Shown: one piece after another, positions 8,460 through 57,516 of the stretch
Layout of the letters: each line of letters begins with the position of its first letter
Numbering within the stretch: the stretch's first letter is position 1
Source: an uncultured Acidimicrobiia bacterium
GTDB lineage: Bacteria; Actinomycetota; Acidimicrobiia; Spongiisociales; JAENVV01
Direction of reading: 5' to 3'
Assembly (NCBI GenBank): GCA_965366365.1
Contig: CBDUEV010000003.1
Location: forward strand, 28,098 to 92,097
DNA length: 64,000 nucleotides
Translations under genes and position numbers: made by a program
The notes under the pieces: generated by a model
Told to the model about the DNA's origin: nothing
Databases searched by the model: none
Seen by the model: the letters and a program-made list of their open reading frames with translations, nothing else

Positions 8460-9140
8460 TCAGTTGCGACCTGCGATCGACTCCAAAGTCGGTCGGTCGA
8501 CGATGTGCACGCGCCGATAGGCGGTGGCGACGGCCCCCGTTTCGCGCAGAAGCCCCAGCGCCTCGTTGACGGTTTGGCGGCTGGCGCCCAGCAACTCCGC
8601 CATGCCTGCCTGGGATAGATGCACGTCACCTCGCACGTCGCACTCGTCGAGAATCAGCTCCGCGACTTGTTCCCTCACGGTGCGTTGCATGAGGCCGAGA
8701 ACGCGTCGCTGAGTCGACTCGAGCTGCGTCAAACCTGCCACCAGCCAGCGCAGCGTGATCACCGGGCGCTGTACGAGGACCGGCAGCAGCAGATCACGAT
8801 CGAACCTGAAGGCAACGAGTCGCATGGTCGCTCGGGCGGAGAGCTTGTAGGGCTCACCCTGAAACATGGCGATGTCGCCCAACACAGACCCGGTGCCCGC
8901 CCTACCCACCGTTCGCTTGGCCGATCTCGCGCCTCGGTAGAGCTCGACCTGGCCACTCTCGAGAACAAAGGCGGAGCGGGACTCCTCTCCTTCCTTGAAC
9001 AGGTGAGTGCCGGGATACTTCTCGATCACCTCGCCCGTCGAGGCAAGTGCTTCCAGGTCGGACTCCCTGAGCGGAAGGTAGTCGGTGCGTCCAAAGCTGC
9101 GCGCCAACCAGGCGAAATGCCTCCGGTCGCTTTCGTCCAT
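8460..9140 (-). CDS. Crp/Fnr-family transcriptional regulator
   Basis: cNMP-binding domain (LFKEGE...LESGQV...GSVLGD) and HTH (LSQAGMAELLGASRQTVNEAL); GAGGAG RBS before ATG 9140. Confidence 0.9.
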   Translation of the reverse strand: MDESDRRHFAWLARSFGRTDYLPLRESDLEALASTGEVIEKYPGTHLFKEGEESRSAFVLESGQVELYRGARSAKRTVGRAGTGSVLGDIAMFQGEPYKLSARATMRLVAFRFDRDLLLPVLVQRPVITLRWLVAGLTQLESTQRRVLGLMQRTVREQVAELILDECDVRGDVHLSQAGMAELLGASRQTVNEALGLLRETGAVATAYRRVHIVDRPTLESIAGRN

Positions 9141-9241
9141 GGCGGGCTCTCCTCGTTGGACTCGACAACGCCGGCTGGTCCCAAACCCTTCCGACGCGGT
9201 CCGATTCGCCAGCTCCGACACCTCGGGTAGCATGCGCTCCC

Positions 9242-9769
9242 ATGCATCCTCTGAGCGGCCCACTCTTCGTTGCCCTGGTCGTCCTCACCCTTGGCGGGGT
9301 TCTCAAAATCGTCCGACCTGACGACACGGCCAACGCCATGCGAGCGATGGGACTGCCGTCGCACCGGGCTCTCGTCCGGTCGATGGGGGGAGCCGAGGTA
9401 GCTCTCGGCCTCAGCACTCTGGTGTGGGCGATGCCGATCCTGGCCTTTGCGGTCGCCGTGGCATATGTGGCGTTTGCCGGCTTCGTCCTCCTCGCCCTCC
9501 GCAGAGGACTCTCCATCCAGTCCTGCGGCTGTTTCGGTCGGGTCGACACTCCTCCGTCGGCCGCTCACCTGGCCGTCAACCTCTCGGCGGCGGCCACTGC
9601 AGTCGGCTGGGCCGTCACCGCCGACCGTTCGTTCGTGTCCCAACTCGGCGACCATCTGGCGGAGGGCATTCCGTTGTTGGTGTTGAGCCTGGTGGGGGTG
9701 TACCTCGTCTACGTCGCTCTGACCGCCTTCCCCGAGACCATGGCCGAAGTCCGGAGGCGGGCAACGTGA
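9242..9769 (+). CDS. MauE/DoxX-family membrane protein
   Basis: GGVLKI, AEVALG, SCGCFG motif typical of MauE; about 5 TM segments. Confidence 0.8.
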   Translation: MHPLSGPLFVALVVLTLGGVLKIVRPDDTANAMRAMGLPSHRALVRSMGGAEVALGLSTLVWAMPILAFAVAVAYVAFAGFVLLALRRGLSIQSCGCFGRVDTPPSAAHLAVNLSAAATAVGWAVTADRSFVSQLGDHLAEGIPLLVLSLVGVYLVYVALTAFPETMAEVRRRAT

Positions 9770-11145
9770 GCAACTGGCTCGTGCATCGCACGACGGAAAT
9801 CCTCGAGCGCACGGTGAGCAGGCGCAGTTTCCTCACCCGGGTCGCCACAGTCGGATCGGCCCTGGTGGCAGCTCCCCTCACCTACGCGCTCAAGCCGACT
9901 TCCGCCTTTGCGGCGGTCTGTTCCTGCTCAGGCTCCACGTGCAGCTGCAGCGCTCTCTGCTGCGACGGCTACACCGAGTTCTGTTGCACGATTTACGGCT
10001 CCAACACCTGTCCGCCGGGAACCCAGGTAGCCGGCTGGTGGAAGGCGGATGGATCCGGCTTCTGCGACGTCGACGGCGTGCCCAAGCCCCGCTACTACCT
10101 GGACTGCAACGCCAGCTGCAACGGGTGCGGATGCGGTTCCAGCGGGCTGTGCTCCCCTTCGTGCTCCGACGGGAACTGTCAATGCGCGCTCGGCTCGTGT
10201 AACAACCGGAAGACCAACTGCACGCTGTTCCGGTACGGGCAGTGCGGCAACCACATCGAATGCCTTGGTCCCATCGTGTGTCGCGTGGTGACCTGCACGG
10301 CACCCTGGATCTGGGACGACTCGTGCGGCACGACGAGCCGCACCGACAACAACACTCGCTTCCACGACCGTCCGTGCCTTCACGACGCACCCGACTATCC
10401 CGCTCTACCCGGGGTCTTCGCAGCCGGTACCTGGCGCCTCGCCACCGGGACCGGGGCCAGCGACCCTCTCAGCGTCTTCGCCTTTGGTACCCTCGGCGAG
10501 ATACCCGTGACGGGAGACTGGAACGGCGACGGCACCGTGACCCCGGGCGTGGTGCGCAACAGCCGATTCGGGCGGTACAAGGACGGCGTGATGTGGTGGC
10601 GTCTGCGCAACAACGCCGGGTCGGGCGAGCCGGACTATGTCTTCTCCTACGGCAAGCCAGGCGACATCCCCATCGTCGGCGACTGGAACGGCAACGGGAT
10701 CCAGACCCCCGGAGTCATCAGGGGCAATACGTGGTATCTCCGCAACGCCAACAGCACCGGAGCCGCCGACATCACATTCCAATTCGGAGAAGTCGGTGAC
10801 ACCTTCGTCGTCGGCGACTGGAACGGAGACGGAATCGACAACCCGGGCGTGGTGCGCGGAACCACCTGGCTCCTCCGCAATTCGAATTCGGGAGGAGCCT
10901 CGGATCTGAGCTTTGCGTTCGGTGAGCCAGGTGACCAGTTCGTGGTCGGCGACTGGAACGGAGACGGAATCGATGGACCCGGCGTGGTGCGAGGGACCAC
11001 GTGGCTCCTCCGTAACGACCCGAGTGCCGGAGATCCCGACCTCATCATGGACCTGGGAGCCGAAGGCCTGCCTGTCGTGTGGAGCGCCGGCACGCTGGCA
11101 GCAGTTCCCGAACCGGTCGATCCAACCGCACCGAGGCTCGCATGA
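9766..11145 (+). CDS. Tat-exported Cys-rich protein resembling the amine dehydrogenase light chain (MauA-like), fused to FG-GAP/VCBS-like propeller repeats
   Basis: GTG 9766 overlaps the mauE-like stop, GGAGG RBS; SRRSFL Tat motif, AFA cleavage site; 26 Cys; CCDG..CPPGT..WW..YYLDC; four GDWNG(D/N)G repeats. Confidence 0.7.
   Translation: MSNWLVHRTTEILERTVSRRSFLTRVATVGSALVAAPLTYALKPTSAFAAVCSCSGSTCSCSALCCDGYTEFCCTIYGSNTCPPGTQVAGWWKADGSGFCDVDGVPKPRYYLDCNASCNGCGCGSSGLCSPSCSDGNCQCALGSCNNRKTNCTLFRYGQCGNHIECLGPIVCRVVTCTAPWIWDDSCGTTSRTDNNTRFHDRPCLHDAPDYPALPGVFAAGTWRLATGTGASDPLSVFAFGTLGEIPVTGDWNGDGTVTPGVVRNSRFGRYKDGVMWWRLRNNAGSGEPDYVFSYGKPGDIPIVGDWNGNGIQTPGVIRGNTWYLRNANSTGAADITFQFGEVGDTFVVGDWNGDGIDNPGVVRGTTWLLRNSNSGGASDLSFAFGEPGDQFVVGDWNGDGIDGPGVVRGTTWLLRNDPSAGDPDLIMDLGAEGLPVVWSAGTLAAVPEPVDPTAPRLA
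10510..11015 (+). repeat. Intragenic repeats (135-bp/45-aa period for copies 2-4) encoding GDWNGDG propeller blades
   Basis: 29-bp identity between 10810-10838 and 10945-10973; four copies at protein level. Confidence 0.85.
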
Positions 11146-11161
11146 CTGCGGAGCCCGGCCG

Positions 11162-11923
11162 ATGACCGTCGCCCTTCTCGTCATCGAGGCAGTCGTCATT
11201 CTGGTCCTCGGCATCCTGGTGGCAGGCCTTCTCAGAAGCCACGCCGAGATACTCCGCTCACTTCACGACCTCGGTGTCGGCGAGGATGGCGAACGGGTCG
11301 CCGCCCCGGCCCGCCAGACCCCCAACGTCATCCCCGGCGTCCCCGAGCCGCGCCAATCCTCGACCCCGGCATTCGACATCGCCGGAGTGAAGACCGACGG
11401 AGCCGCACGGCGCATCGCGGTCGTCGAGACGGATCACACCACGCTGCTGGCGTTTCTCTCGACCGGCTGCACGACCTGCGCGTCGTTCTGGAAGGCGTTC
11501 AGCGAAACCGATCGTCTCGACCTGCCCGGGGTCGACACCCGCCTCGTGGTGGTCACCAAGAGTCCCGGGGAGGAGTCGGAGTCCCGGCTGCGGGATCTGG
11601 CTCCCCGCCAGTTTCCTCTGGTCATGTCATCGGAGGCATGGAATGACTATCAAGTGCCTGTGTCGCCCTACTTCATCCTCATCGATGGCCGGGCAGGACG
11701 CGTCCTCGGCGAAGGGGCGGCCGCCACCTGGGGACAGGTGAAGCATTTGTTGGCGCAGGCCGTTGCCGACCAGTCGATCGTCACCCGGACCCCCGTTCCC
11801 GGCGTGTCGTCGGGAGCCGACCGTGAAGACCGCATCGACCGCGAGTTGCGCGAGGCCGGAATCGAGCCCGGGCACGCCAGTCTCTATCCGGCCGCCACAC
11901 CCGACGTGGAGAGAGCGGAATGA
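11162..11923 (+). CDS. MauD-like membrane-anchored thioredoxin-fold protein
   Basis: N-terminal TM followed by LLRSHAEILRSL, FLSTGCTTC CxxC, VSPYF cis-Pro loop. Confidence 0.75.
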   Translation: MTVALLVIEAVVILVLGILVAGLLRSHAEILRSLHDLGVGEDGERVAAPARQTPNVIPGVPEPRQSSTPAFDIAGVKTDGAARRIAVVETDHTTLLAFLSTGCTTCASFWKAFSETDRLDLPGVDTRLVVVTKSPGEESESRLRDLAPRQFPLVMSSEAWNDYQVPVSPYFILIDGRAGRVLGEGAAATWGQVKHLLAQAVADQSIVTRTPVPGVSSGADREDRIDRELREAGIEPGHASLYPAATPDVERAE

Positions 11924-12603
11924 ACCTCCCCGTCCTGGTCGGGGTGCTCGTCGGCGTTACGGCGGCCGTCCGGTCGAGTTGGTCACCATGAGGAGAATCG
12001 ATGCTGTCGAGCATCACGCCGCTCGGTGAGCGGACGAGGGACAATCGATGGGGTGCCACCGTCGCCTGGTACGTGGCGGGTTCGGCCCTGGGCGGCCTCA
12101 CCTTTGGTGTGGCGGCAGGGTTGTTGGGAAGTCTCGCCGAGACGCTGTGGTGGCCGACCGAGTTCGCCTTGGGCTTGACCGTGGTGGGGATACTCCTGGT
12201 CGGGTTGGTGTTCGATTTCGGCCTGGTCGGCTCCGTCCCGTCGATCCATCGCCAGGTCAATGAGGACTGGCTCAGTCTCTACCGGAGCTGGGTGTACGGC
12301 GGTGGATTCGGATACCAACTAGGCCTGGGGGTGGTGACGATCGTCCCGACCGCCGCAACCTACGTGGCCTACTCGATGGCGTTCCTGTCCGCTTCGATCC
12401 CAGGAGGCGCCGTCGTCGGCGTGGCCTACGGGTTCGCCCGAGCCCTTCCGATCCTCACGGTACGGCGAGCGGTGGATCCGTCGGGCCTGCGTACCTTCCA
12501 CCGCAGGATGCAGCGGGTCGGGCCGAAGGTCGGCCGGTTGACGAACGCCGGCCTCGCCGCCGGTTTGATCGTCGCCGTCTCCTCCTTGAGTGGGGGGTTC
12601 TGA
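11920..12603 (+). CDS. MauF/DsbD-like membrane protein with an in-frame TGA at codon 24 (candidate selenocysteine, WSP-U-G)
   Basis: ATG 11920 overlaps the upstream stop (ATGA); frame reads MNLPVLVGVLVGVTAAVRSSWSP*GESMLSSITPLGER and continues into ORF 12001..12603 (RQVNEDW, YGGGFGYQLGLG). Confidence 0.7.
11992..12033 (+). promoter_or_regulatory. Candidate bacterial SECIS hairpin(s) directly 3' of the UGA
   Basis: GATGCT-GTCG-AGCATC (12000-12015) and CCGCTC-GGT-GAGCGG (12019-12033); both perfect 6-bp stems with G-initiated loops. Confidence 0.45.
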
Positions 12604-12605
12604 CA

Positions 12606-13076
12606 GTGGCCCAGATCGCCGACCAGCGCGTGAGTGTGGACCTGCCACCCGGATGGGAGGCCGAGTTCATTCGCCGAGCCCCCGATCCGGCTCCCCTTGG
12701 CACCACCACCCCGGAGGAGACCTATGCGGTCCTTCACATCGCCAACTGGCCGATGCCGACCGAGCGAGGCGACTTCGGTTCGGGCGCCGTCGAGGTCATG
12801 CGGAGCGGGGACGTCCTCGTCATCCTGGCCGAGTACGGCCCGGAGAACCTCGGAACCGCCCTTTTCAAACGAGTGGGAGTTCCGTGGCCCCTCGACGCCG
12901 CCGACTTCGACAAGAACCGCCTGCAGCGCCCGCTCCCCGGACAGGGTGGCCTGCAACAGTTCTTCGCCGAATCAGACCGGGCATTCTGCCTCTACGTGGT
13001 GCTCGGCAACCTGGCGGACGCCGATCAACTGGTCGGCACGGTCAACGCCCTCCTCGAAACGGTGGCGATCACATGA
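12606..13076 (+). CDS. Hypothetical protein in the mau-like operon
   Basis: 156-aa ORF, 2 bp after the previous stop, overlapping the next start. Confidence 0.7.
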   Translation: MAQIADQRVSVDLPPGWEAEFIRRAPDPAPLGTTTPEETYAVLHIANWPMPTERGDFGSGAVEVMRSGDVLVILAEYGPENLGTALFKRVGVPWPLDAADFDKNRLQRPLPGQGGLQQFFAESDRAFCLYVVLGNLADADQLVGTVNALLETVAIT

Positions 13077-14086
13077 GGGGATGGCGCACGACCCGAGCTC
13101 TCCGGACCCTGCTGGTCTCGATCCTGCTCGCGGTTGTGGCACTGCCGGCGGCAGGAGCCGCCGAACTCGACATCAACGGCTACTTCGACGATGACAACTC
13201 CTCGGTGCACGAACAGGACATCGATTCGATCGCCGCCGCCGGCATCACCCTCGGATGCAATCCACCCGCCAACACCAATTTCTGTCCGGCCCAGGACGTC
13301 ACCCGAGGCGAGATGGCCGCTTTCCTCCGCAGGGCAAAAGGCCTGCCGTTCGTGACCACCGACTACTTCTGGGACGACAACGGGTCCACATTCGAGGACG
13401 ACATCAACGCCATCGCCGCCGACGGCATCACACAAGGATGCGGAGGGGGGCGCTATTGCGGCTCGGTGCCGATGCGCCGATCGGAGATGGCGGCCATGCT
13501 CGCCAACGCTCTCCGGCTGCCCCAATCGAGCACCGACCACTTCGTCGACGACAACGGCAACCCGCTCGAGGAAGCGATCAACTCCATCGCCGATGCGGGC
13601 GTGACTCTGGGGTGCAACCCTCCCGACAACGACAGGTTCTGCCCGGATCTCACGGTGTCCCGGGCCCAGATGGCGAGCTTTCTGACGAGGGCCTTCGACC
13701 TTCCCGCCGTCTACATCGAAGGCCCCTTGGAGTTCGCCCTGCCGTTCTCCGGCGTCTGCGACTCCCAACAGACCTCCTGCAGTGCCACGATCACGCTTCC
13801 CAGTATCGATGCCTACCTGATCAACGAGGGTTGGTTCTACAAGCCTCCTTTTGCGCCGGGAGAACAGGCTCTCTTCGAGGCCGGCACCACCGATTTTCGG
13901 GCCCGCCTCGACGGCATCGCGATCGATCTGGACTCGGCTCCGACGGAATCGGAGGGGGGGTCGTTCGTGCGACGGTTCACGGGCACCATTCCGCGGCTCT
14001 CCAAGGGCAGTCATGAGGTGACCGGTGAATGGCGCTGGGACGGCACCGTGGTGTACGAAACACGGCTCACCCTGATCATCGACTGA
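13073..14086 (+). CDS. Secreted protein with three S-layer homology (SLH) domains
   Basis: Signal peptide; three F.DD...I..IA..GIT.GC...C....TR.(E/Q)MA.(F/M)L repeats; C-terminal beta-rich domain. Confidence 0.85.
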   Translation: MRGWRTTRALRTLLVSILLAVVALPAAGAAELDINGYFDDDNSSVHEQDIDSIAAAGITLGCNPPANTNFCPAQDVTRGEMAAFLRRAKGLPFVTTDYFWDDNGSTFEDDINAIAADGITQGCGGGRYCGSVPMRRSEMAAMLANALRLPQSSTDHFVDDNGNPLEEAINSIADAGVTLGCNPPDNDRFCPDLTVSRAQMASFLTRAFDLPAVYIEGPLEFALPFSGVCDSQQTSCSATITLPSIDAYLINEGWFYKPPFAPGEQALFEAGTTDFRARLDGIAIDLDSAPTESEGGSFVRRFTGTIPRLSKGSHEVTGEWRWDGTVVYETRLTLIID

Positions 14087-25861: not shown

Positions 25862-27046
25862 TCAGAGACCGGCCTGGCGCCACGCCTCTCGAATCTTGGT
25901 TCGGCCCGAACGAAGGATGCCACCTCGGTAGATCCGGGCCGCGATCCGTATCAAGACGATGGTGCTCACCACCGTGGAGGCGATGGCGACGCCGAACTGC
26001 CAGGGCGGGACCTCCAACGCGGCGGATCGCACGAGCATCACCATCGGAGCCGTGATCGGCAGCATGGACGCCACCTCGACGAGAGTCGTCTCGGGATCGG
26101 CGGTGGCAACGAGGGCGATGAAGTAGCCGGGGAGAATCGCAACGATGGGGATCCACGAGACGGACTGGACGTCCTCCTGCCGGGAGACGAGCGACCCGGC
26201 GGCGGCGAAGAGAACGCTGTAGAGGCTATAGCCGAGGAGGAACCACATCACCACTGAAAGCAGAATGCCGAGACCCATTTCGCCGAGGTCGGGCAGGTCC
26301 GCGAGGTCGATGACGTTCAGGATCGCCACCAGGGATCCCCCGATCAGGATGAGCTGGACGAGACCGAGCAACCCGATGCCAATCACCTTCCCGGCGAGCA
26401 ACTCGACGGGGCGCACCCGAGACAAGACGACCTCGGCAACTCGACCCGCCTTCTCCTCGAGGACACCGAGCAGCACGAATTGACCGAACATCACAATCGA
26501 GATGAAGAGAAGCAGCACACCAACGTAGGCAGCCGCCGAGCGCGCCTCGGCGTCGGGGTCGGGTTCGGACAGCGTCACCACCTCGGGCGGTTCGGGGGCC
26601 AGGAGCGCAGCCAGCTCGTCGGGAGCGAGGCCAAGTTCGACGCTGGCGATCTGACGGTCGGCGAACCCGAACGCGGCCACGAAGATCGCTTGCAGAGTCC
26701 CCGAGGCTTGCTGGCGATAGACGACCTCGCGTCCGTCGACGAGGGCCTCCACCTCCCCGGCGTCGAGGGCGACCTCGCCCAACTCCCGAGAGGAGTAGCT
26801 CTCGACTTCGAGATCGACCCCGGCCCCGTCCGCGGCAAAGTCGAGCGCCGCTTCGAACTCGACTGCGAAGGGGGTCACCATTCCGACAGGAATCGCACTC
26901 GGACCTTCGAGCACTTGGGCGAGGAGGGGCACACCTCCGAAGATCGCAGCCATCACCGCCAACGTCGCCACGAGGAATATCCGACTCTGGGCACGCTGGA
27001 CGAAATCCCTGCGGGCCACCTCGAAGATCGAACGCCATCGACTCAT
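25862..27046 (-). CDS. ABC-2 type permease (NatB/YhaP-like)
   Basis: GVLEEKAGRVAEVVLS, LLAGKVIG, RIYRGGIL; start overlaps the ATPase stop. Confidence 0.88.
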   Translation of the reverse strand: MSRWRSIFEVARRDFVQRAQSRIFLVATLAVMAAIFGGVPLLAQVLEGPSAIPVGMVTPFAVEFEAALDFAADGAGVDLEVESYSSRELGEVALDAGEVEALVDGREVVYRQQASGTLQAIFVAAFGFADRQIASVELGLAPDELAALLAPEPPEVVTLSEPDPDAEARSAAAYVGVLLLFISIVMFGQFVLLGVLEEKAGRVAEVVLSRVRPVELLAGKVIGIGLLGLVQLILIGGSLVAILNVIDLADLPDLGEMGLGILLSVVMWFLLGYSLYSVLFAAAGSLVSRQEDVQSVSWIPIVAILPGYFIALVATADPETTLVEVASMLPITAPMVMLVRSAALEVPPWQFGVAIASTVVSTIVLIRIAARIYRGGILRSGRTKIREAWRQAGL

Positions 27047-27927
27047 GAACCGACCGCCTGGCGGAAGAGATCCGAGAGGTGGGGCGGACCATAGGAGAAA
27101 TCGGTCACGTCGCCCTCGGCTCCGGCCTGGGCAAGAACATCGTCGAGCCGGATCGTGGCCGGAACCAGGAACCCAGCACCACGGGCGTTTCCGGTCGCCG
27201 GCGCCATCCCTTCCAGGTCGGGAGACCACGCCACGCCGTCGACCGACACCTCGATGCGGATCAGATCGGTTTGGGAACGAAGGGTGGCCACCTCTCCGGA
27301 CAGGACGACCGTGCCTTTGTGGATGATCACGACGTCCTGACAGACGTCCTCGACGAGGTCGAGCTGGTGGCTCGAGAAGACGATGCCGACCCCTTCCTCG
27401 GCCAGGTCGACCAGCAGGGTGGACATCGCCGTGATTCCCAGGGGATCCAAACCGGCGAACGGCTCGTCCAACACGAGCAGCTGGGGCGAGTGCACGAGCG
27501 CGGCGGCGAGTTGGACTCGCTGCTGGTTTCCATGCGACAGCTCCTCGAGACGCGAATTCGCTCGGTCGGCCAGGCCCAGTCGAGTCAGCCAGTGATCGGC
27601 CGCCGCGGCCGCCTTCTTACGTGGCAAGCCGGACAACACCCCGAAGTAGGCGAGTTCGTCAGCCACCTTCATCTTGGGGTAGAGGCCCCGTTCCTCGGGC
27701 ATGTACCCAAACCGCAGGCGCGTCTCGTGCGTGACCGGTAGGCCCTTCCAACGCACCTCGCCGGCATCCGGCTCGGCAAGGCCGAAGATGCACCGCATGG
27801 CAGTGGTCTTCCCGGCGCCGTTCGGACCGAGGAATCCGACGATTCGGCCGGGGGGCACCACAAAGCTGGCCGCATCGAGGGCAACCACCTCGTTGTATCG
27901 CTTCGAAAGAGCGTCGATTTCGAGCAT
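27043..27927 (-). CDS. ABC transporter ATP-binding protein (YhaQ-like)
   Basis: GPNGAGKTT, GYMPEERGLY, LSHGNQQR, LDEPFAGLD. Confidence 0.93.
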   Translation of the reverse strand: MLEIDALSKRYNEVVALDAASFVVPPGRIVGFLGPNGAGKTTAMRCIFGLAEPDAGEVRWKGLPVTHETRLRFGYMPEERGLYPKMKVADELAYFGVLSGLPRKKAAAAADHWLTRLGLADRANSRLEELSHGNQQRVQLAAALVHSPQLLVLDEPFAGLDPLGITAMSTLLVDLAEEGVGIVFSSHQLDLVEDVCQDVVIIHKGTVVLSGEVATLRSQTDLIRIEVSVDGVAWSPDLEGMAPATGNARGAGFLVPATIRLDDVLAQAGAEGDVTDFSYGPPHLSDLFRQAVGS

Positions 27928-28121
27928 CAGCCTCCGAACCGTAGCCGGTCCCCACAGACCCAGCCAGGGGCGAATTGCCACACACCTGACGGCTCGCCAA
28001 GCGAGCGACCCTGCAGAGAAACACGCTCCACGGCGGGGCAGGAGTGTGGACCTGCCTCCAGCTCAACTATCGTCGCAGGTGACAAAGCGAACAGATACGC
28101 AAAGACGGACAGCGAGGCATT

Positions 28122-39781: not shown

Positions 39782-42094
39782 TCAGGACAGGACCGGTGCC
39801 AGCGCCACCGCAAGCACCTCGGGAACGCTGCTGACCACGTGAAACGTGATCGCCTCACGTACCTCCGCCGGCACGTCGTCGAGATCGATCTCGTTCCTAG
39901 CCGGGACCACCACCTCGGTGATTCCGGCGCGGTACGCGGCCAGGACCTTCTGTTTCAGTCCACCGATGGGCAGGACGGCGCCCTGGAGCGTCACCTCGCC
40001 GGTCATACCGACCGTCTCCTTGACCGACTGATCGGTCAGCAGGCTGGCCAGCGCGGTCACCATGGTGATGCCTGCCGACGGCCCGTCTTTGGGGATCGCC
40101 CCAGCCGGCACATGGAGGTGGATCTTTCGATCGAAGGCCTCATCGGCGATTCCAAGACGAGCGGCATTGGCTCGCACGTAGCTGAGGGCGATCTGGGCAG
40201 ATTCCTTCATGACGTCACCGAGCTGACCGGTCAGTGTCAAGCCCGGCTCCCCGCCCATGGCGGACGCCTCGATGAACAGGACGTCTCCACCGGCTCCCGT
40301 CACCGCCAGGCCGGTGGCAACGCCCGGCACCGCGGTCCGATCGGCCACTTCGTCATGGTGGACCGTGGGCTTTCCGACCAGATCGACGAGATCCTCGGCG
40401 TCGATCTCGACAGGTCCGGCGAGCTCTCCAGTGGCGATCTTCGTCGCCACCTTCCGCGCCAATTTCCCGAGCTGTCTTTCGAGACCACGAACGCCGGCCT
40501 CCCGGGTATATCCGTCGACCAAGGCTTCCAACGCTCCCTCGGTGAGCGAGACCTCGTCCGTCGTCAGGCCGGCCGAGCGCAGCTGGCGTCGGGCCAGATG
40601 ATCCCGACCGATCGCCACCTTCTCGGCGTCCGTGTAACCGTCGATCCGGATCACCTCGGTCCTGTCGAGCAGCGGCGCCGGAATGGTGTCCAGAAGGTTG
40701 GCGGTGGCCACGAAGAGGACATCGGAGAGATCGAGGTCGTACTCGAGATAGTGGTCGCGGAAGGTGTGGTTCTGAGCAGGGTCGAGCACTTCGAGAAGGG
40801 CGGAGGAGGGATCGCCACGCCAGTCCGAGCCCACCTTGTCCATCTCATCGAGCAAGAAGACCGGATTCATGGAGCCGGCGTCGATCAGCGCCCTGGCGAT
40901 CCGTCCGGGCCGCGCTCCGACATACGTGCGTCGATGCCCGCGGATCTCGGCCTCGTCTCTCAGCCCGCCGAGAGCCACTCGCACGAAACGTCGCCCCAGC
41001 GCTCGCGCCACCGACTCGCCGAGGGAAGTCTTGCCGACTCCCGGCGGGCCGACCAGCAGGAGTATTGCGCCGGACCGGCGATCGCCTTCTGAGGATTCGA
41101 TCCCCCGCTCGGCTCTCAGTTTTCGCACCGCTAGATGCTCGATGATCCGTTCTTTGACGTCATCGAGTCCGGCGTGATCGTCGTTCAGCACCTGGCGCGA
41201 GGCGGCGAGGTCGAATGTGTCCTCGCTGAAGACGCCAAAAGGGAGCTCGAATGTGGTGTCCAGCCAGGTCCGGATCCAACCGTGCTCCGGGCTCTGCTCG
41301 TTCATCCTCTCGAGCCGATCGATCTCACGCTCGATGGCTTCGGCGACGTGCTCCGGGAAGTTCGCCTCGCCGAGGCGCTTCCGGTATTCGGCGATCACAT
41401 CGTCGCCACCCTCGTCGAGTTCCGAACGGATGGCGTCGAGTTGCTGGCGGAGCACATACTCCCGCTGGCTCTTCTCCATCCGTTCGGCGGCGTCTTCTCG
41501 AACCCGACGTCGCAGCGTGAGCTCTCCGAGGACGTCGGTCATCCAGGCCATCAGTTTCCCGAACCGTTCGTGGAGGTCGGCGGTCTCGAGAAGCTCGACT
41601 TTCTGTTCGAGTGACAGGTCGGGCGAGTAGGCCGCCAGGTCGGCCAGCTGCCCCGGGTGGTCGATGCCGAGAATCCTTTCGGCCACCTGGCCCATGCCCC
41701 GCAGCTCGAGCACCTCCGACACCGTGGCGCGGTACTCGGCCACCATCTCCTCGAGAGCGGCGTCGGTGAAGTCCATGTCGGGCAGTTCCTCGGCGTCGAC
41801 CCAGAGGGCGCCGTCTTCGCCCCGGCGACCGGCCCCCACCCGCGCTCGGGCGAGACCCCGCACCACGACACCTGCGCCGCCCGACACGTCCTGGATCTCC
41901 GCGATCGTGCCGACGCGCGCATAGGTGTCCCCGACACGGGGAACCAGCAGAATCCGGTTTTCGGTGCCGCCGGCAGCCGCCAGAGCGGTCGCACCCTCGT
42001 CCGAATCGATCGTGAGCGTCACCACCATGTGGGGGAACACGACCCCGTTTCTGAGGGGGAGAACGGGAAGGGTCAGTTTCGTGGTTTCGGGCAT
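39782..42094 (-). CDS. lon: Lon protease
   Basis: LPVLPL N-domain, GPPGVGKTS, PKDGPSAG, PIGGLKQK; AGGAG RBS. Confidence 0.97.
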   Translation of the reverse strand: MPETTKLTLPVLPLRNGVVFPHMVVTLTIDSDEGATALAAAGGTENRILLVPRVGDTYARVGTIAEIQDVSGGAGVVVRGLARARVGAGRRGEDGALWVDAEELPDMDFTDAALEEMVAEYRATVSEVLELRGMGQVAERILGIDHPGQLADLAAYSPDLSLEQKVELLETADLHERFGKLMAWMTDVLGELTLRRRVREDAAERMEKSQREYVLRQQLDAIRSELDEGGDDVIAEYRKRLGEANFPEHVAEAIEREIDRLERMNEQSPEHGWIRTWLDTTFELPFGVFSEDTFDLAASRQVLNDDHAGLDDVKERIIEHLAVRKLRAERGIESSEGDRRSGAILLLVGPPGVGKTSLGESVARALGRRFVRVALGGLRDEAEIRGHRRTYVGARPGRIARALIDAGSMNPVFLLDEMDKVGSDWRGDPSSALLEVLDPAQNHTFRDHYLEYDLDLSDVLFVATANLLDTIPAPLLDRTEVIRIDGYTDAEKVAIGRDHLARRQLRSAGLTTDEVSLTEGALEALVDGYTREAGVRGLERQLGKLARKVATKIATGELAGPVEIDAEDLVDLVGKPTVHHDEVADRTAVPGVATGLAVTGAGGDVLFIEASAMGGEPGLTLTGQLGDVMKESAQIALSYVRANAARLGIADEAFDRKIHLHVPAGAIPKDGPSAGITMVTALASLLTDQSVKETVGMTGEVTLQGAVLPIGGLKQKVLAAYRAGITEVVVPARNEIDLDDVPAEVREAITFHVVSSVPEVLAVALAPVLS

Positions 42095-42124
42095 CGTGGC
42101 CGCTCCTCATGGGAAGACGAAGGA

Positions 42125-42139
42125 ATGTAATGATGTAAT
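42125..42139. promoter_or_regulatory. Second copy of the ATGTAATGATGTAAT operator-like repeat, upstream of lon
   Basis: 15/15 identity to the reverse complement of 1059-1073. Confidence 0.6.
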
Positions 42140-42176
42140 GTCGCGGCCGGGGCTGGATATTCCTCGATCCAGGGAA

Positions 42177-42197
42177 TATGATAAGGGTCGACTCAAG
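42177..42197. promoter_or_regulatory. HAIR (HspR operator) between lon and dnaK
   Basis: TATGATA-N7-ACTCAAG versus consensus CTTGAGT-N7-ACTCAAG; right half perfect. Confidence 0.65.
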
Positions 42198-42297
42198 TTA
42201 TAACGACACGAGATACTAAGATGACACAAACCAAGTGTGAACACGGCTGCCGCCGACCCCTGGCGGCGAGCACCCATCAGAGAGGAAAGAACCCACC

Positions 42298-44151
42298 ATG
42301 GCACGAGCAGTAGGTATCGATCTCGGTACCACCAACTCAGTGATCGCCACCCTCGACGGAGGCGAACCCACCATCATCCCGAACGCCGAGGGCGGACGCA
42401 CCACCCCGTCGGTCGTAGCGTTCAAGGACAACGAGGTTCTGGTCGGGGAGATCGCCAAACGCCAGGCCATCACCAACCCCGACGGCACCGTACGTTCGGT
42501 GAAACGCCACATGGGCACCGATTGGTCCATCAAGGCTGACGGCAAGACCTTCACCGCTCAAGAGGTCTCAGCCCGCATCCTGATGAAGCTGAAGCGGGAC
42601 GCCGAAGCGTTCCTGGGCGAGGAGATCACCCAGGCGGTGATCACCGTCCCGGCCTACTTCGGGGACGCCCAACGCCAGGCAACCAAGGAAGCCGGCGCCA
42701 TCGCCGGGCTCGAGGTCCTTCGGATCATCAACGAACCGACCGCGGCATCCCTCGCCTACGGCCTCGACAAGGCCGACGAACAGACGATCCTCGTCTTCGA
42801 CCTCGGAGGCGGCACGTTCGACGTGTCGGTGCTCGAGATCGGCGAGGGCGTCTTCGAGGTGAAGGCCACCAGCGGCGACACGAGCCTGGGCGGCGACGAC
42901 TGGGATCAGGCGATCATGGACTGGCTGGTCAAGGGGTTCAAGAACGAGCACGGCGTCGATCTCTCCGAAGACCGGATGGCGATGCAGCGCCTGAAGGAAG
43001 ACGCCGAGAAGGCCAAGATCGAGCTTTCGTCTGTTCCGGAAACCGAGATCAACCTACCGTTCATCACGGCGACCTCTTCTGGGCCGCTCCACCTCCAGAA
43101 GAAGCTGTCGCGGGCCGAGTTCGAGAAGATCACCGCGCCCCTGCTCGAACGCGTTCGTCGGCCGTTCCTGTCGGCCATCAAGGACGCCGGACTCACCGTC
43201 GATCAGATCCAACAGATCGTTCTGGTGGGCGGGTCGACCCGTATGCCGGCCGTGGTGGAACTGGTCAAAGAGCTCGGAGGCAAGGACCCTCAGAAGGGGG
43301 TCAACCCCGACGAGGTCGTGGCGGCCGGAGCGGCCCTTCAGGCGGGTGTGCTCAAAGGTGACGTCAAGGACATCCTCCTCCTCGACGTGACGCCGCTCAC
43401 CCTGGGTATCGAGACCAAGGGTGGGGTCATGACCAAGATGATCGAACGCAACACGACCATCCCGACCCGACGTTCCCAGACCTACACGACGGCAGCCGAC
43501 AACCAGCCGGAGGTCGAGATTCACGTCCTCCAAGGCGAAAGGGAAATGGCGCGCGACAACAAGAGCCTCGGCAAGTTCAACCTGACCGGGATTCCGCCGG
43601 CACCGATGGGGATGCCGCAGATCGAGGTCACGTTCGACATCGACGCCAACGGGATCGTTTCCGTCAACGCCAAGGACCTCGGCACCAATCGTGAGCAGGC
43701 AATGACGATCACCGGAGGGACCGCCGTCTCGAGCGAAGAGATCGACCGGATGATCAAGGACGCAGAGGCGCATGCCGAAGAGGATCGCGCCAATCGCGAG
43801 CGGGCCGAGACGCGCAACCAAGCCGAACGGCTCGCCCACGACACCGACAAACTGTTGGTGGACCAGGCCGACAACCTCAACGACGACGAGAAGAGCGCCA
43901 TCGAGACGGCCCTGGCCGATCTCAAGGCGAGCATCGAGAAAGAGGACGCCGGTACCGACGAATTCAAGCCGAAGATCGAGGCTCTCCTGACCGCCTCGCA
44001 GGCTCTGGCCCAGCGTCTCTACGCACAGGCACAAGAGGAAGCTGCGGCCGCAGGCGGGGCAGGCGACGACGCCGAGGCGATGAACGACGATGACGATGAC
44101 GACGTCGTCGAAGCGGAGATCATCGACGATGAATCGGGTGACGAGGCGTGA
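42298..44151 (+). CDS. dnaK: Chaperone DnaK
   Basis: [28 protein letters not shown]. Confidence 0.98.
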
Positions 44152-53376: not shown

Positions 53377-54117
53377 TCAGAGAATCTGACTGAGAAAGAG
53401 CTTGGTTCGTTCGTGCTGGGGATTGGTGAAGAAATGGTCCGGCGTTCCGGCCTCCACCAACTGCCCGTAATCGAAGAACAACACGCGGTCGGCCACCTCG
53501 CGGGCGAAGCCCATCTCATGGGTGACCACCAACATCGTCATCCCCGTACCCGCCAACTCCTTCATCGTGTCGAGCACCTCCTTGACCATCTCAGGGTCCA
53601 GGGCGGAAGTGGGCTCGTCGAACAGCATCACCTTCGGCTCCATCGCCAGGGCTCGGGCAATCGCCACACGCTGCTGCTGCCCACCGGACAGCTGACCGGG
53701 GAACTTGTCCGCCTGCTCGGGGATGCCGACTCGGTCGAGCAGGCTTCGCCCGATGGCTTCGGCCTCGGTGCGCGACTTCTTCCTCACCCAGATCGGTCCC
53801 AGGGTGATGTTGTCGAGCACCGTCAGATGCGGAAAGAGGTTGAAACTCTGAAAGACCATCCCGACTTCGGAACGAATGGCCTCGATGTTCCTGAGGTCGT
53901 TGGTCAGTTCGATCCCGTCGACCGAGATCAAGCCCTCCTGATGCACTTCGAGCCGGTTGATACAGCGAATGAAGGTGGACTTCCCAGAGCCGGAGGGACC
54001 GATGATCACCACCACCTCGGCTTCCTTGACGGTCAGGTCGACGCCATGGAGCGCCTGGAAATCGCCGAACCACTTCTTGACGCCTTTGCAGACGATGATG
54101 TCCTTGTCTCCGGGCAT
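53377..54117 (-). CDS. Polar amino-acid ABC ATP-binding protein (AapP/BztD-like)
   Basis: [35 protein letters not shown]. Confidence 0.95.
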
Positions 54118-54130
54118 TGTCTTCCCTTTC

Positions 54131-55957
54131 CTAGCGCTGACCGACGCCCAGACGCCGTTCAAGGCGCATGGAAGCACGGGAGAATGCGAACGTGAATACC
54201 CAGTAGATGACCGCCACCGCCACGATCGACTCGAGGAACGACCCGAGGAACTGAGACTGTGATGGGATCACCTTCTGAGCGATATACAACAGGTCGAAGA
54301 GGCCGATGATCGCCACCAGGGAGGTGTCCTTGAAGAGAGCGATGACCTGGCCCACCAGGGCGGGGATCACTGCCTTGAGCGCCTGCGGGAGGATGATGAG
54401 CGAGGTCTTCTGGATGGTGGTCATGCCGAGAGCGTCGGCAGCTTCGTACTGCCCTTTGGAAAGGGACTGCAGTCCGCCTCGCACATTCTCGGCGAGATAC
54501 GCCGCCGAGAACAGGGTCACGGCGCCCACCGCCCGCACGACCTGATCCAGCTCCAGTCCCCCGGGGAGGAAGAGCGGAAACAGGTTCAAGGAGGCAAACA
54601 GCCACGTGATGAGCGGAACCGATCGCACCAACTCGATGTACACGGTGGACACGGTCCGGAAGATCGGCAGAGTGCTGGTGCGGCCCAATGCCAGGATCAC
54701 ACCCAGCGGGAACGACAGACCGATGCCGAAGATGGCAATGACAAAGGTGAGGGCCAGCCCGCCCAGGAAGTCGGAGCCACCAAAGCCAAGAGCCGACTCC
54801 GAAGACGAGAGCCGCACCACCAGAACGATGAGGAACACCGTGGCGAACCACACCGCCACGAGTTGGCGGCGGGCCTGGGGCGAACCACCGAAGTTGGGGG
54901 CGAGGAGGCCGAACAAGCCGAGGGTCAGAACCAGAAGCTTGACCACCATGAGGACGGGGGCAAGGAAGAGGGCGATGAGGCCGCCGAGAAAGATGAGTCC
55001 CGCCACCGCTCGTCCCGGTTCACCTGAGCTCTCGGTGCCCAGCCACGACACCAACACGCCTCCGCCCACACCGAAGGCGAGGAGGATGGGCACGTCAAGT
55101 GTCAGCACGCTGCGCGAACCGGTCCAGGCCAGATCGGGCGCCCGGAGAAGAATCATCACGATGAACGGGGAGGCCAGCGTCCAGCCCGCCACGGTCGCCG
55201 CCCTGAGACCCTCGAAACGGTCTCGGATCAGCACCCCGAGCCAGTAGGCGAGCAGACCCACTCCGGCCAGAATCGTCCAGGGAAGTTTGGTGGAGAGGGC
55301 GATGGGCTCCCACACGTCGGCATTGAATCCCTGCTCGTTCACTCCGGGAACCGGGGCGCGCATCACCCACAGCGAAGCCACGACGCCGAGGAGAGCGAGC
55401 CCCATCAGGGCCAGGGTGGAGATGGATTCCTCGGTGGCGTTCTCGCCTTGCCGGTCGACCCAGAACCGTGTTCCCATGAACACCGCTCCGAACACCACCA
55501 GCCATACCACTCGATTCAGCGAATAGGGGACAGCCGCCACCAACACGGTCACGAAGAGAAAGCCCGAGGTGCCCATGACGATCCGTCCGAGTTGCCGCCT
55601 GCTGATCTTGTCGCCCACTCGATAGGCCGCCACCGAGAGGCCCGCCAGCACGACGATGACCCCCACCGACGCCCACACTCTCCACATGGCGTCCTGGGGA
55701 TAGGCCTGGATCATCAAGAGCCGCGAGTTCTGAGCCACCGCCCGCCATTGGCGGGTCCCTTCGAGTGCCCATGCGGCGATACCTGACAAGGACGCCAGCA
55801 AGGCGGCGATGATGGCGATCGAGAGGAGCGAATTGGCCACCGACGAGAAGAGGTTCTCCTTCACCCAGACGAAGGCTCCTGCCGGAGGCGGTTCGGGGGC
55901 GGGCGCCGACTCCGGTACTCCGAGGTCCACGCTGACCGGAAAGCGTTTTTCGTCCAT
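54131..55957 (-). CDS. Amino-acid ABC permease (AapM-like, extended)
   Basis: [33 protein letters not shown]. Confidence 0.9.
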
Positions 55958-57516
55958 CAGCGTTCCACCAGTTTGAGACGGTTGTTCCAATAGTTGACCA
56001 CGCTCGAAAGACCCAGGCTCACCAGCGAGTAGAAGACCATCCAGAACAAGAAGATCGGGAGGACCGCACCGGTCTGGTTGTAGATCGTCGACCCGACGGC
56101 CACCACATCGGAGAAGCCCGTGGCGATTGCCAACGACGTGTTCTTGGCCAGGTTCAAATACTGGTTGCCGATAGGTGGCAGAACGATTCGGAATGCCTGG
56201 GGAAGCACGATCATCCGGAGGAGTTGGCTCCGCTTCAGTCCCACCGCCAAGCCGGCCTCGGTCTGGCCTTTCGAAACCGCCATGACGCCCGCCCGGACCG
56301 CCTCGCCGACGAACGCCGCCGTGTAGATGACCAATGCTCCCCAGAGAGCGGCGTAGGAGATCGTCACGACCTTCCCGAAGCTGCTGTCGTAGTTGACGAA
56401 CGTGCCCTCGGTCAGGACGGGGAGGTTGGGATCGAAGGGCGCCCCGCCTCGCATGAACTCGAATCGGTCGGCCGCCGCGCCGAACAGCCTCTCAAAGCCC
56501 GAAGCTTTGCCGAACACGTCCGCCCGCCCGATGATGGCTTCGGTCACGGCCGGGACAGCGAAGAGGAAGACCGCCACGATGAGAGCCATCAATCCGGCGG
56601 TGATGATCCTGTACCAATCGTCGTCCGAGAACTTGCCGTAGCCGTTCGGGGTTCTGAGCGAGTCGAGGCGAGCTTTGATGACCCAGTAGCCGCCGTAGAG
56701 GACCAAGAGGGCGAGCAACACCTGGAACACCAAGACCGGGAGGGTGGCGAACACCCACTCGATGCTGCCGAAGATCCATCCCAGGAAGCCCATGATCGGG
56801 TGAAGCCACCAGCCGGCGACCGCGAACAGGACCAGGGTGCCGATCGAGTAGATCCCGACCTTCGCCTCGCCGCGACCGGACTCCTGGATGCGAATACGCC
56901 AGCGATAGACGAGGACAGTGGCCAGGATCCCGACAACGAAGAACGCCACCCATTGCCAGCGCGTCTCGGTGGGGTTGAACCAGGGCAGCGCGAAGCCCTT
57001 GGCGGAGTAATAGAAGAAGTCTCTCTCCATGAACGGCAGGCTGATACCGGACTCAGTGGTGAGCTGGCCGAAGAGGCGGATGATGATCAGCCAGAAGAAG
57101 ATCTGGACAAGGAGCGGAATGTTGCGGACCGTCTCGATGTACCCGGTGGCGGCCTTGTTGACGATCCAGTTGTGCGAGAGCCGGGCCACACCCAGAATCG
57201 TCCCCAACACCGTGGCGGCGATGATCCCCGAGAACGTGAGGCGGAACATGTTGACCACGCCAACGGTCAACGCCTGCAAGGCCGAATCGGGAACGGTGAC
57301 GTAACTGCCTTCGGACAGGGTGATCCCGACCGGCTTGGAGAGGAAGTCGAAGGAGATCGTCTTGCCTTGGTCCCCCAGGTTGCCCGTCGCCGTGGAGGCC
57401 AGGAGCCAGAGGACGAAGAGGACGCCGCCAAGAACTGCGAACTGGGCGATCCATTTCAGGATCCTGACGTCACGCCAGATTGGTGGCCTGGCCTGTCGTT
57501 CGATCACTGACGCCAC
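55957..57516 (-). CDS. Amino-acid ABC permease (AapQ-like, extended)
   Basis: WRDVR, ARLSHNW, ETVRNIPLL, GNQYLNLAKNTSL. Confidence 0.9.
   Translation of the reverse strand: MASVIERQARPPIWRDVRILKWIAQFAVLGGVLFVLWLLASTATGNLGDQGKTISFDFLSKPVGITLSEGSYVTVPDSALQALTVGVVNMFRLTFSGIIAATVLGTILGVARLSHNWIVNKAATGYIETVRNIPLLVQIFFWLIIIRLFGQLTTESGISLPFMERDFFYYSAKGFALPWFNPTETRWQWVAFFVVGILATVLVYRWRIRIQESGRGEAKVGIYSIGTLVLFAVAGWWLHPIMGFLGWIFGSIEWVFATLPVLVFQVLLALLVLYGGYWVIKARLDSLRTPNGYGKFSDDDWYRIITAGLMALIVAVFLFAVPAVTEAIIGRADVFGKASGFERLFGAAADRFEFMRGGAPFDPNLPVLTEGTFVNYDSSFGKVVTISYAALWGALVIYTAAFVGEAVRAGVMAVSKGQTEAGLAVGLKRSQLLRMIVLPQAFRIVLPPIGNQYLNLAKNTSLAIATGFSDVVAVGSTIYNQTGAVLPIFLFWMVFYSLVSLGLSSVVNYWNNRLKLVER

Follow-up and report, generated by a model that had tools for sequence, protein, structure and literature searches.

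What are relatives of the accessory genes of methylamine dehydrogenase (MADH) doing in a locus devoid of mauB and mauG? The question is raised by a stretch of 64,000 nucleotides from an uncultured Acidimicrobiia bacterium (contig CBDUEV010000003.1), referred to below as the window, in whose positions all coordinates are given. In this window, an open reading frame (ORF) at 9766–11145 on the forward strand encodes a protein of 459 amino acids (aa), called here the client. The original prediction took it for a single-chain quinoprotein, i.e., a Cys-rich domain resembling MauA, the MADH light chain, fused to a beta-propeller of its own. The absence of mauB and mauG from the window was correctly pointed out there; the mauE-, mauD- and mauF-like genes flanking the ORF were not mentioned. 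For three decades, MauE, MauD and MauF have been known as genes needed for the MADH small subunit. The evidence considered below suggests that the client is probably an exported, disulfide-knotted surface domain of the MauA-like kind, folded by a dedicated MauE/D/F system and operating without a dehydrogenase.

The Client Protein and Its Family

The client gene (9766–11145, +) encodes a twin-arginine translocation (Tat) leader, a head with 26 Cys, a linker, and a five-bladed propeller; it begins with a GTG that shares bases with the stop codon of the mauE-like gene in front of it (a GTGA junction). The gene is single-copy in the source genome and was recovered without indels in contigs from four runs of another study. 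The one common variant, T>C at 9984, falls on the third base of codon C73 and is read here as synonymous. The Tat signal predicted earlier, SRRSFL, occupies residues 18–23 (TIGR01409, 18.1 bits vs. a cut-off of 16.7), and the motifs CCDG (residue 65), CPPGT (82), GWW (90), YYLDC (110), and PWIW (180) are all present in the predicted order. The count of 26 Cys proved to be right, with the span being 153 aa (residues 52 to 204) instead of about 157; of the four GDWNGDG repeats reported, three are exact (residues 250, 350, and 395) and the one at residue 305 is the variant GDWNGNG. The linker (residues 194–209) is a low-confidence stretch of the AlphaFold2 (AF2) model; hence, no fixed interface between the head and the propeller can be claimed.

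What is conserved throughout a large, unnamed family of actinobacterial proteins, mainly from Acidimicrobiia, is the head (residues 50–205; 9913–10380, +). It matches no Pfam or NCBIfam model, and a search of the Atlas with the head domain gave no usable named match. A literature search, with subscription journals outside its coverage, returned no paper on the head family or on a selenocysteine-containing MauF; the one pertinent item was a preprint on MauE, cited below. The homologs include 2037 sequences of near-full length and 244 shorter ones; clustering at 50% identity left 596 representatives at E ≤ 1e-3. In a collection with one genome per species, at least 591 head loci were found, of which 80 were kept as the set of loci used below; all of these come from metagenome-assembled genomes, which mostly bear the label Acidimicrobiia. 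Of the 201 genomes sampled evenly from the class of the window, 50 contain the domain, with a patchy distribution over its families (18/20 genomes of one family, 0/47 of another). A phylum-wide sample contained it in 23 of 301 genomes, a tally that includes the unpublished genome G449.

Stand-alone forms of about 200 aa, consisting of the leader and the head, sit on long contigs. A selenocysteine inside the Cys-rich gene itself was considered and rejected, since the internal TGA of the relatives turned out to be the stop codon of these stand-alone forms. A genome of the same family as the source (G028) displays a second partial head match (G028:C18:52178-52357 and G028:C69) near a mauF-like gene at a contig end, which may represent either a split assembly or a second copy.

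Resemblance of the Head to the MADH Light Chain

The likeness starts with the leader (residues 1–49; 9766–9912, +), which scores above the cut-off of TIGR01409 and aligns with the MauA family in hhalign. It features a conserved helix ahead of the twin-arginine (RR) motif and an A-x-A cleavage site formed by A47, invariant in the family alignment, and A49, nearly invariant. Scored with a MauA leader profile, it ranks first among the 334 RR-motif N-termini of the source genome (score 33.1, E 1.3e-7), the runner-up having a score of 25.3. TatC is encoded in the same genome.

The mau cluster of Paracoccus denitrificans (plasmid NC_008688.1, 653 kb; mau genes at 216737–220072) served as the reference. 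The MauA sequence fetched from it bears W108 and, in agreement with the motifs given in the original prediction, SIDG with D32, CPPGT, SW with W57, YRDCC with D76, and 12 Cys. The spacings are similar as well: 16 residues in the client vs. 15 in MauA from the Asp of the DG motif to CPPGT, 10 vs. 11 from CPPGT to the Trp, and 21 vs. 19 from the Trp to the Asp. A BLOSUM62 local alignment with mature MauA, pairing CPPGT with CPPGT, W92 with W57, and D113 with D76, scored 75; none of 1000 composition-preserving shuffles (40.4 ± 7.6; z 4.6) reached this value. The head family with its leader, when compared with the MauA family by hhalign, gave a Prob of 96% (E 4.4e-9) over the region from the leader through CPPGT.

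The AF2 model of the head (predicted local distance difference test, pLDDT, 83.1; predicted template modeling score, pTM, 0.80) was submitted to Foldseek, and the best 28 matches were all light chains of MADH or aromatic amine dehydrogenase (AADH). This family was the sole one returned by the fold search over 48,161 chains. The alignment of folds is colinear (model residues 12–132 vs. chain residues 7–128) and comprises 77–84 residues at 20–22% identity. The gamma subunit of quinohemoprotein amine dehydrogenase (QHNDH) and the LodA-type quinoproteins are absent among the fold-search matches listed, which does not exclude them, as no dedicated search was made.

Overall, the head shares with MauA and AauA (PDB 2bbk_L, 3c75, 2agl_D) the long Tat leader, whose RR motif is preceded by a conserved helix; the small, disulfide-dense, mostly beta architecture; and the motif order C-x-DG, CPPGT, Trp, Y-x-DC at similar spacing. 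The MauA/AauA chains are its only or top structural neighbors, and its gene, like theirs, adjoins relatives of mauE, mauD, and mauF. In these respects, the likeness to the MADH light chain proposed earlier is borne out. At the same time, the head family differs from MauA/AauA by the lack of a match to the family hidden Markov models, by 16–28 Cys instead of 12 along with extra Cys-rich inserts, by the lack of an equivalent of Trp108, and by a poorly conserved equivalent of Asp32. The client also has no heavy-chain, MauG, or amicyanin context, its head is joined to wall- or glycan-binding modules, and its family belongs to Actinomycetota, whereas the known MauA proteins come from Pseudomonadota.

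The mauE- and mauD-like Genes and the Conserved Cassette

The gene just upstream of the client (9242–9769, +) encodes a mauE-like membrane protein of 175 aa with a C-G-C-F-G motif, recognized by the Pfam model MauE (PF07291, E 9.9e-14). Its family aligns with P. denitrificans MauE in hhalign (Prob 93.3%, E 2.7e-7), the CGCF motif being part of the alignment. Downstream, a mauD-like gene (11162–11923, +), with its ATG at 11162 and a GGAG at 11150, codes for a protein of 253 aa comprising an N-terminal membrane helix and a thioredoxin fold with C-T-T-C. The MauD model TIGR02661 matches it far under the family cut-off (E 7.2e-5); the comparison of its family with P. denitrificans MauD by hhalign yielded a Prob of 96.2% (E 2.3e-9).

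The recurrence of neighbors over the 80 loci was scored by targeted tblastn, with the many loci cut by contig ends left unfiltered. The mauE-like gene recurs in 68/80 loci, mostly just upstream of the client, and the mauD-like gene in 73/80, mostly just downstream. Further downstream, a mauF-like gene (for a membrane protein of 200 aa) is found in 55/80 loci and a gene for a 156-aa protein in 70/80. The first gene is linked with the second, and the third with the fourth, by overlapping start and stop codons; the client and the four other genes appear to be translated together.

Of the three helpers, MauE alone has lately been assigned a biochemical function, in a preprint (10.64898/2026.03.05.709764). 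There, two MauE homologs are reported to replace DsbB in Escherichia coli by virtue of a CXC site, usually followed by FG, and MauE homologs are described as needed for disulfide-dependent activities, with MauE being regarded as a generalist and MauD as DsbA-like. The set of helpers described here resembles the DsbB/DsbA and VKOR systems in combining a membrane generator of disulfides with a thioredoxin-fold carrier. It differs from them in being dedicated to a single client, with which it shares an operon, and in having a third, selenium-containing membrane component.

In five orthologs of about 620 aa (P0043, P0049, P0067, P0102, and P0106), a MauE domain (PF07291, N-terminal) is fused ahead of the leader and the Cys-rich head, so that the RR motif becomes internal to the polypeptide. 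These MauE–client fusions may be real, or else gene calling may have repeatedly gone wrong at the GTGA overlap. If the gene calls are correct, the fusions suggest that the head can get outside without classical Tat export.

A mauF-like Gene with a Putative Selenocysteine

The ATG of the mauF-like gene (11920–12603, +; 227 codons) overlaps the stop codon of the mauD-like gene (ATGA), and its frame contains an in-frame UGA at 11989–11991. The standard ORF call, 12001–12603, is shorter than the true frame; standard gene callers would truncate the gene likewise. MauF has no Pfam or NCBIfam model, and the assignment was made by direct comparison: hhalign of the mauF-like family against P. denitrificans MauF gave a Prob of 97.4% (E 1.6e-11, 149 columns), with 0.1% against MauE and 0.3% against MauJ as negative controls. 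As a single query on the 653-kb P. denitrificans plasmid, the protein found one match, located inside mauF (E 1.9e-7).

The UGA lies in the motif R-[SA]-[ST]-W-S-P-[U/C]-G (WSP[U/C]G.SML), which is read with TGA in 41 loci and the window and with Cys in 12, two more being unreadable; P. denitrificans MauF contains STWSPCGYSSIS, with Cys, at the same motif. Contigs from the four runs of another study mentioned above span the TGA without a listed difference. Behind it, at 12000–12033 (+), two hairpins resembling a selenocysteine insertion sequence (SECIS) are predicted, GAUGCU-GUCG-AGCAUC (12000–12015) and CCGCUC-GGU-GAGCGG (12019–12033). RNAalifold gave -12.75 for 43 distinct sequences of the selenocysteine type, the first hairpin (6 bp) being conserved, and -0.23 with no hairpin for 12 sequences of the Cys type. 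The selenocysteine machinery is encoded in the source genome in the form of tRNA-SeC, selB (331.8 bits), and selA (421.1 bits), both genes scoring above their cut-offs. On these grounds, the in-frame UGA is read as selenocysteine and the hairpins as SECIS-like elements. Selenocysteine is a hallmark of catalytic redox residues.

Among the 201 genomes of the class sample, the client and the mauF-like gene are found together in 49, the client alone in 1, the mauF-like gene alone in 1, and neither in 150; these counts are inflated by the relatedness of the genomes, and the pattern holds over many families. Certain genomes of the class also have the mauF-like gene in longer open frames of 258–448 aa, and the cassette is not always intact. 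A crude estimate from hydropathy and the positive-inside rule places the selenocysteine loop in the cytoplasm; it leaves the helix count ambiguous and was not used.

All three members of the P. denitrificans mauF-mauE-mauD set have homologs here (hhalign Prob 93–97%), which keep the C-x-C-F motif of MauE, the CxxC of MauD, and the WSPCG of MauF. The differences concern the gene order (F-B-E-D-A in P. denitrificans vs. E-client-D-F here), the selenocysteine at the redox residue of MauF, the length of the MauF-like protein (227 vs. 277 aa), the extra conserved gene for a 156-aa protein, and the lack of mauB, mauG, mauJ, and amicyanin genes.

Shared Ancestry or Chance Likeness

Each of the lines set out above is weak singly. 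Together, the sequence alignment, the leader, the modelled fold, and the gene context render a shared ancestry of the head and MauA rather likely. Most likely, the head is related, very distantly, to the small subunits (MauA/AauA) with tryptophan tryptophylquinone (TTQ); the Trp-Trp cofactor pair and the heavy-chain partner would have been lost from it or would never have been present.

A number of observations weigh against this interpretation. The fold scores of the head are under any usual threshold. PF02975, the light-chain model, has no match in the source genome even at E ≤ 10 and matches 0/100 family representatives at E ≤ 1e-4, and an NCBIfam scan of the client returned the Tat-signal model only, with no TIGR02659; the positive control, P. 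denitrificans MauA, attained 180 bits on PF02975 and 399 bits on TIGR02659. In the reverse direction, MADH chains are missing from the matches of the family profile among the PDB sequences (E ≤ 10), and the profile has no match on the P. denitrificans plasmid. Once the leader is trimmed, hhalign gives a Prob of 3.4% (E 0.013) over 11 columns around CPPGT, and BLASTP against MauA an E of 0.034. It is the spacing that would place W92 and D113 at a TTQ-like site. As to the context, the preprint cited above states that only 10.2% of the MauE-bearing species have MauA (10.64898/2026.03.05.709764); if MauE is a generalist, the MauE/MauD neighborhood alone is no mark of a MauA relative. In addition, the client and the mauF-like gene are widely separated in some genomes: in G056, G111, G151, G127, and G083, the latter is located hundreds of kilobases off or on another contig.

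It can be argued from the failure of the profile methods on the mature domain, from the low fold scores, and from the generalist nature that the preprint ascribes to MauE that the head is an unrelated Cys-rich fold, in which CPPGT, the Trp, and the Asp-Cys arose by convergence or chance, as features of disulfide-rich proteins, and which, as a demanding client, has a general MauE/MauD pair next to it. Such a coincidence is considered unlikely. The family returned alone from 48,161 chains, and filling the best 28 Foldseek matches, is the one that was the a priori candidate; the alignment surpasses the composition-matched shuffles; and the leader is extended in front of the RR motif in the same unusual manner as that of MauA. 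Moreover, the mauF-like gene, for which Pfam and NCBIfam have no model, co-occurs with the client (only 2 of the 201 genomes have one without the other).

Conserved Residues and Cysteines of the Head

Conservation was counted over 132 of the 139 representatives, after seven rows covering fewer than 130 domain residues had been dropped. N80, P83, W91, W92, R109, D113, F155, R156, Y157, G158, and R173 are invariant (132/132), as is a core set of Cys; Y110 is nearly so. W181 is Trp in 106/132 and Tyr in 23/132. D67, aligned with the Asp32 position of MauA, is Asp in 69/132 sequences, Ser in 30/132, and Glu in 10/132. The earlier statement that the Trp and both Asp are retained is supported for W92 and D113 and, as regards conservation in the family, not for D67. 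It is proposed that W91-W92, R109, D113, F155-R156-Y157-G158, R173, and Y110 may make up a site for ligand binding or catalysis where the light chain holds TTQ. By tblastn, the head (54–72% identity) is better conserved than the helpers (mauE-like, 27–51%; mauD-like, 34–59%; mauF-like, 34–51%).

The number of Cys ranges from 16 to 28 over the family and is even in 119/139 representatives. Several Cys columns behave as reciprocal pairs, namely 54-66 (phi 1.0), 52-61 (0.94), 129-133 (0.94), 138-152 (0.93), 65-140 (0.84), and 74-204 (0.83). The Cys-dense runs are variable: C52, C54, C61, and C66 are present in 52–54/132 sequences and C118–C133 in 70–93/132. The even counts and the pairwise gain and loss fit structural disulfides, not a Cys-Trp cofactor, and judging by its 26 Cys, the head of the client could hold up to 13 disulfides.

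Tat leaders are typical of cofactor-carrying proteins, and the client has one. This invites the idea that the head binds a metal (Fe-S, Cu, or a Zn-thiolate), is Tat-exported in the folded state, and has its thiols kept reduced by the helpers; the runs CSCSGSTCSCSALCC and CNGCGCGSSGLCSPSC, read directly in the sequence, resemble metal-thiolate motifs. An older proposal of MauE as a reductase, cited in the preprint, points the same way, whereas the experiments presented there, in which two MauE homologs replace DsbB and are needed for disulfide-dependent activities, point the opposite way (10.64898/2026.03.05.709764). The Cys-dense runs are, however, the variable part of the family and are lost pairwise. 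The MauE–client fusions put the leader inside a membrane protein; with correct gene calls, this would mean that a cofactor protein folded beforehand need not be exported by Tat. A metal-binding head is therefore regarded as highly improbable.

The Propeller and Its Substitutes

The propeller (residues 213–440; 10402–11085, +) was assigned to the FG-GAP type with AF2 and Foldseek. Its model has a pLDDT above 90 over most of its length and 20 strands, read as five blades of four, with the DWNG[DN]G loop in four of the blades. The best Foldseek match is UmbA4 (9oee_A, E 3.1e-7), followed by fungal N-acetylglucosamine lectins, 4tqm, 4tqj, and 2bwm among them (E 4.5e-5 to 8.8e-5 for these three and up to 3.2e-4 for the group). 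The Pfam model FG-GAP_3 scores 21.6 bits on it, under the cut-off of 26.9. The four-stranded blades and the D-x-N-x-D-G-type loops are shared with the Psathyrella velutina lectin (PVL), AAL2 of Agrocybe, and UmbA4 of Streptomyces. The fungal FG-GAP lectins are seven-bladed; the client propeller differs in its five predicted blades and its sub-cut-off FG-GAP_3 score.

The head is found with diverse C-terminal modules. The propeller accompanies it in 24/80 related loci, and a Pfam scan of 100 of the 138 newly listed family representatives revealed LGFP in 21/100; FG-GAP_3 in 4/100; SLH, CW_binding_2 (CWB2), ricin, and DUF4214 in 2/100 each; and Tectonin, fn3, and B_lectin in 1/100 each, while 64/100 showed no C-terminal Pfam family. 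The families seen are wall-anchoring or carbohydrate-binding modules. Since the modules are exchanged, and since they are of these types, the propeller is best read as a tether and not as a catalytic partner. Judging by its modelled fold, it would be an interchangeable lectin or wall-binding module, holding the client on the cell wall.

A Quinoprotein without MauG?

Could the client still be a self-contained quinoprotein, in which W92 and D113 carry a Trp-derived quinone formed independently of MauG, the propeller replaces the heavy chain, and the whole acts as a surface amine dehydrogenase or oxidase? The invariance of W91, W92, and D113, along with the fixed R109, FRYGQ, and R173, is what would be expected of an active site. 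The head is more conserved than its helper genes, and the leader, the nearest folds, and the helpers are all MauA-like.

Nevertheless, TTQ requires two tryptophans, and a conserved counterpart of the second one is missing. The position opposite Trp108 is E165 in the client and A, P, G, or S in the family, as deduced from a low-confidence, alignment-dependent extended hhalign alignment, and W181 is replaced by Tyr in the 23 sequences noted above. D67, at the Asp32 position, is Asp in only the 69 sequences counted above. With the even Cys counts and the paired loss of Cys, there is no evident unpaired Cys available to form a Cys-Trp quinone, the other cofactor that had been considered. Neither MauG (PF03150) nor MauB (PF06433) was found in the 96.2%-complete source genome, where a search for MauG had been called for; as positive controls, PF06433 finds P. 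denitrificans mauB (E 2.4e-212), and PF03150 scores above the cut-off in 4/14 control genomes. The five cassette genes are the only ones among the window neighbors tested that come back over the 80 loci. The role of a heavy-chain substitute, assigned earlier to the fused propeller, is at odds with its presence in a minority of the syntenic orthologs, its absence from the stand-alone forms, and its lectin-like fold; the MADH heavy chain is not among the best 50 Foldseek matches of the propeller. Taken as a whole, the quinoprotein proposed in the original prediction is improbable.

To our knowledge, the first hydroxylation of Trp57 in MADH is independent of MauG, and its catalyst is unknown. It is conceivable in this connection, if doubtful, that the site comprising W91-W92, D113, R109, and FRYGQ carries a MauG-independent, Trp-derived redox cofactor, e.g., a Trp hydroxylated or converted to a quinone with the assistance of the selenocysteine-containing MauF-like protein. 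If this were true, the family would represent a new class of single-subunit, wall-anchored quinoproteins in Gram-positive bacteria, and the long-unknown first oxidation step of TTQ-type biogenesis would be identified.

The Fifth Cassette Gene and Other Neighbors

The fifth member of the cassette (12606–13076, +), which in some loci separates the mauD-like gene from the mauF-like one, encodes the conserved 156-aa protein. Neither a signal peptide nor a membrane helix could be discerned in the protein sequence, and it has no Pfam match (E ≤ 0.01) and no match among the PDB sequences (E ≤ 10). Compared by hhalign with MauJ, F, G, B, M, N, R, and amicyanin, it gave a Prob of at most 0.6%. In the Atlas, it belongs with unnamed Actinomycetota clusters only, the named ones at 0.90–0.91 being weak leads. 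With a role as a chaperone binding the leader in mind, a complex of its family with leader residues 1–50 was predicted; it scored 0.01 against a mark of 0.32, a value obtained without controls that weighs neither way.

Other genes around the cassette recur rarely or not at all. A Crp/Fnr-type regulator with cyclic nucleotide-binding and helix-turn-helix domains (8460–9263, −), divergent from the mauE-like gene and upstream of it, was seen in 0/80 loci, as were the upstream enoyl-CoA hydratase, the low-molecular-weight phosphatase, and the FtsX permease. An SLH-repeat protein encoded downstream (13076–14086; Pfam SLH, E 1.2e-6) recurs in 8/80 loci. Elsewhere in the window, the 2-kb bins 26001–28000, 42001–44000, and 54001–56000 exhibit an unusually high AT skew (0.21–0.24), two of them with a slightly lower GC content than their surroundings.

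Possible Operation of the Cassette and Its Significance

For the reading of the client as a disulfide-knotted surface domain, the following sequence of events can be envisaged, in which the order of the redox steps is inferred. The client would be exported via its MauA-type leader. The MauE-like protein would oxidize the MauD-like one, which, in turn, would introduce up to 13 disulfides into the head, and the selenocysteine-containing MauF-like protein may add a step of proofreading, isomerization, or electron relay. Finally, the propeller, or the LGFP, SLH, CWB2, or ricin modules of the orthologs, would hold the folded head on the wall glycans.

Three Mau helpers thus occur here without a dehydrogenase and are tied to one abundant and highly conserved client in many uncultured Acidimicrobiia, whose head is among the more conserved surface proteins of the class. 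The cassette represents a clean natural system for asking what MauF does and how a protein with about 13 disulfides passes a Tat-type route. It also bears on the question of what the ancestor of the TTQ light chain looked like.

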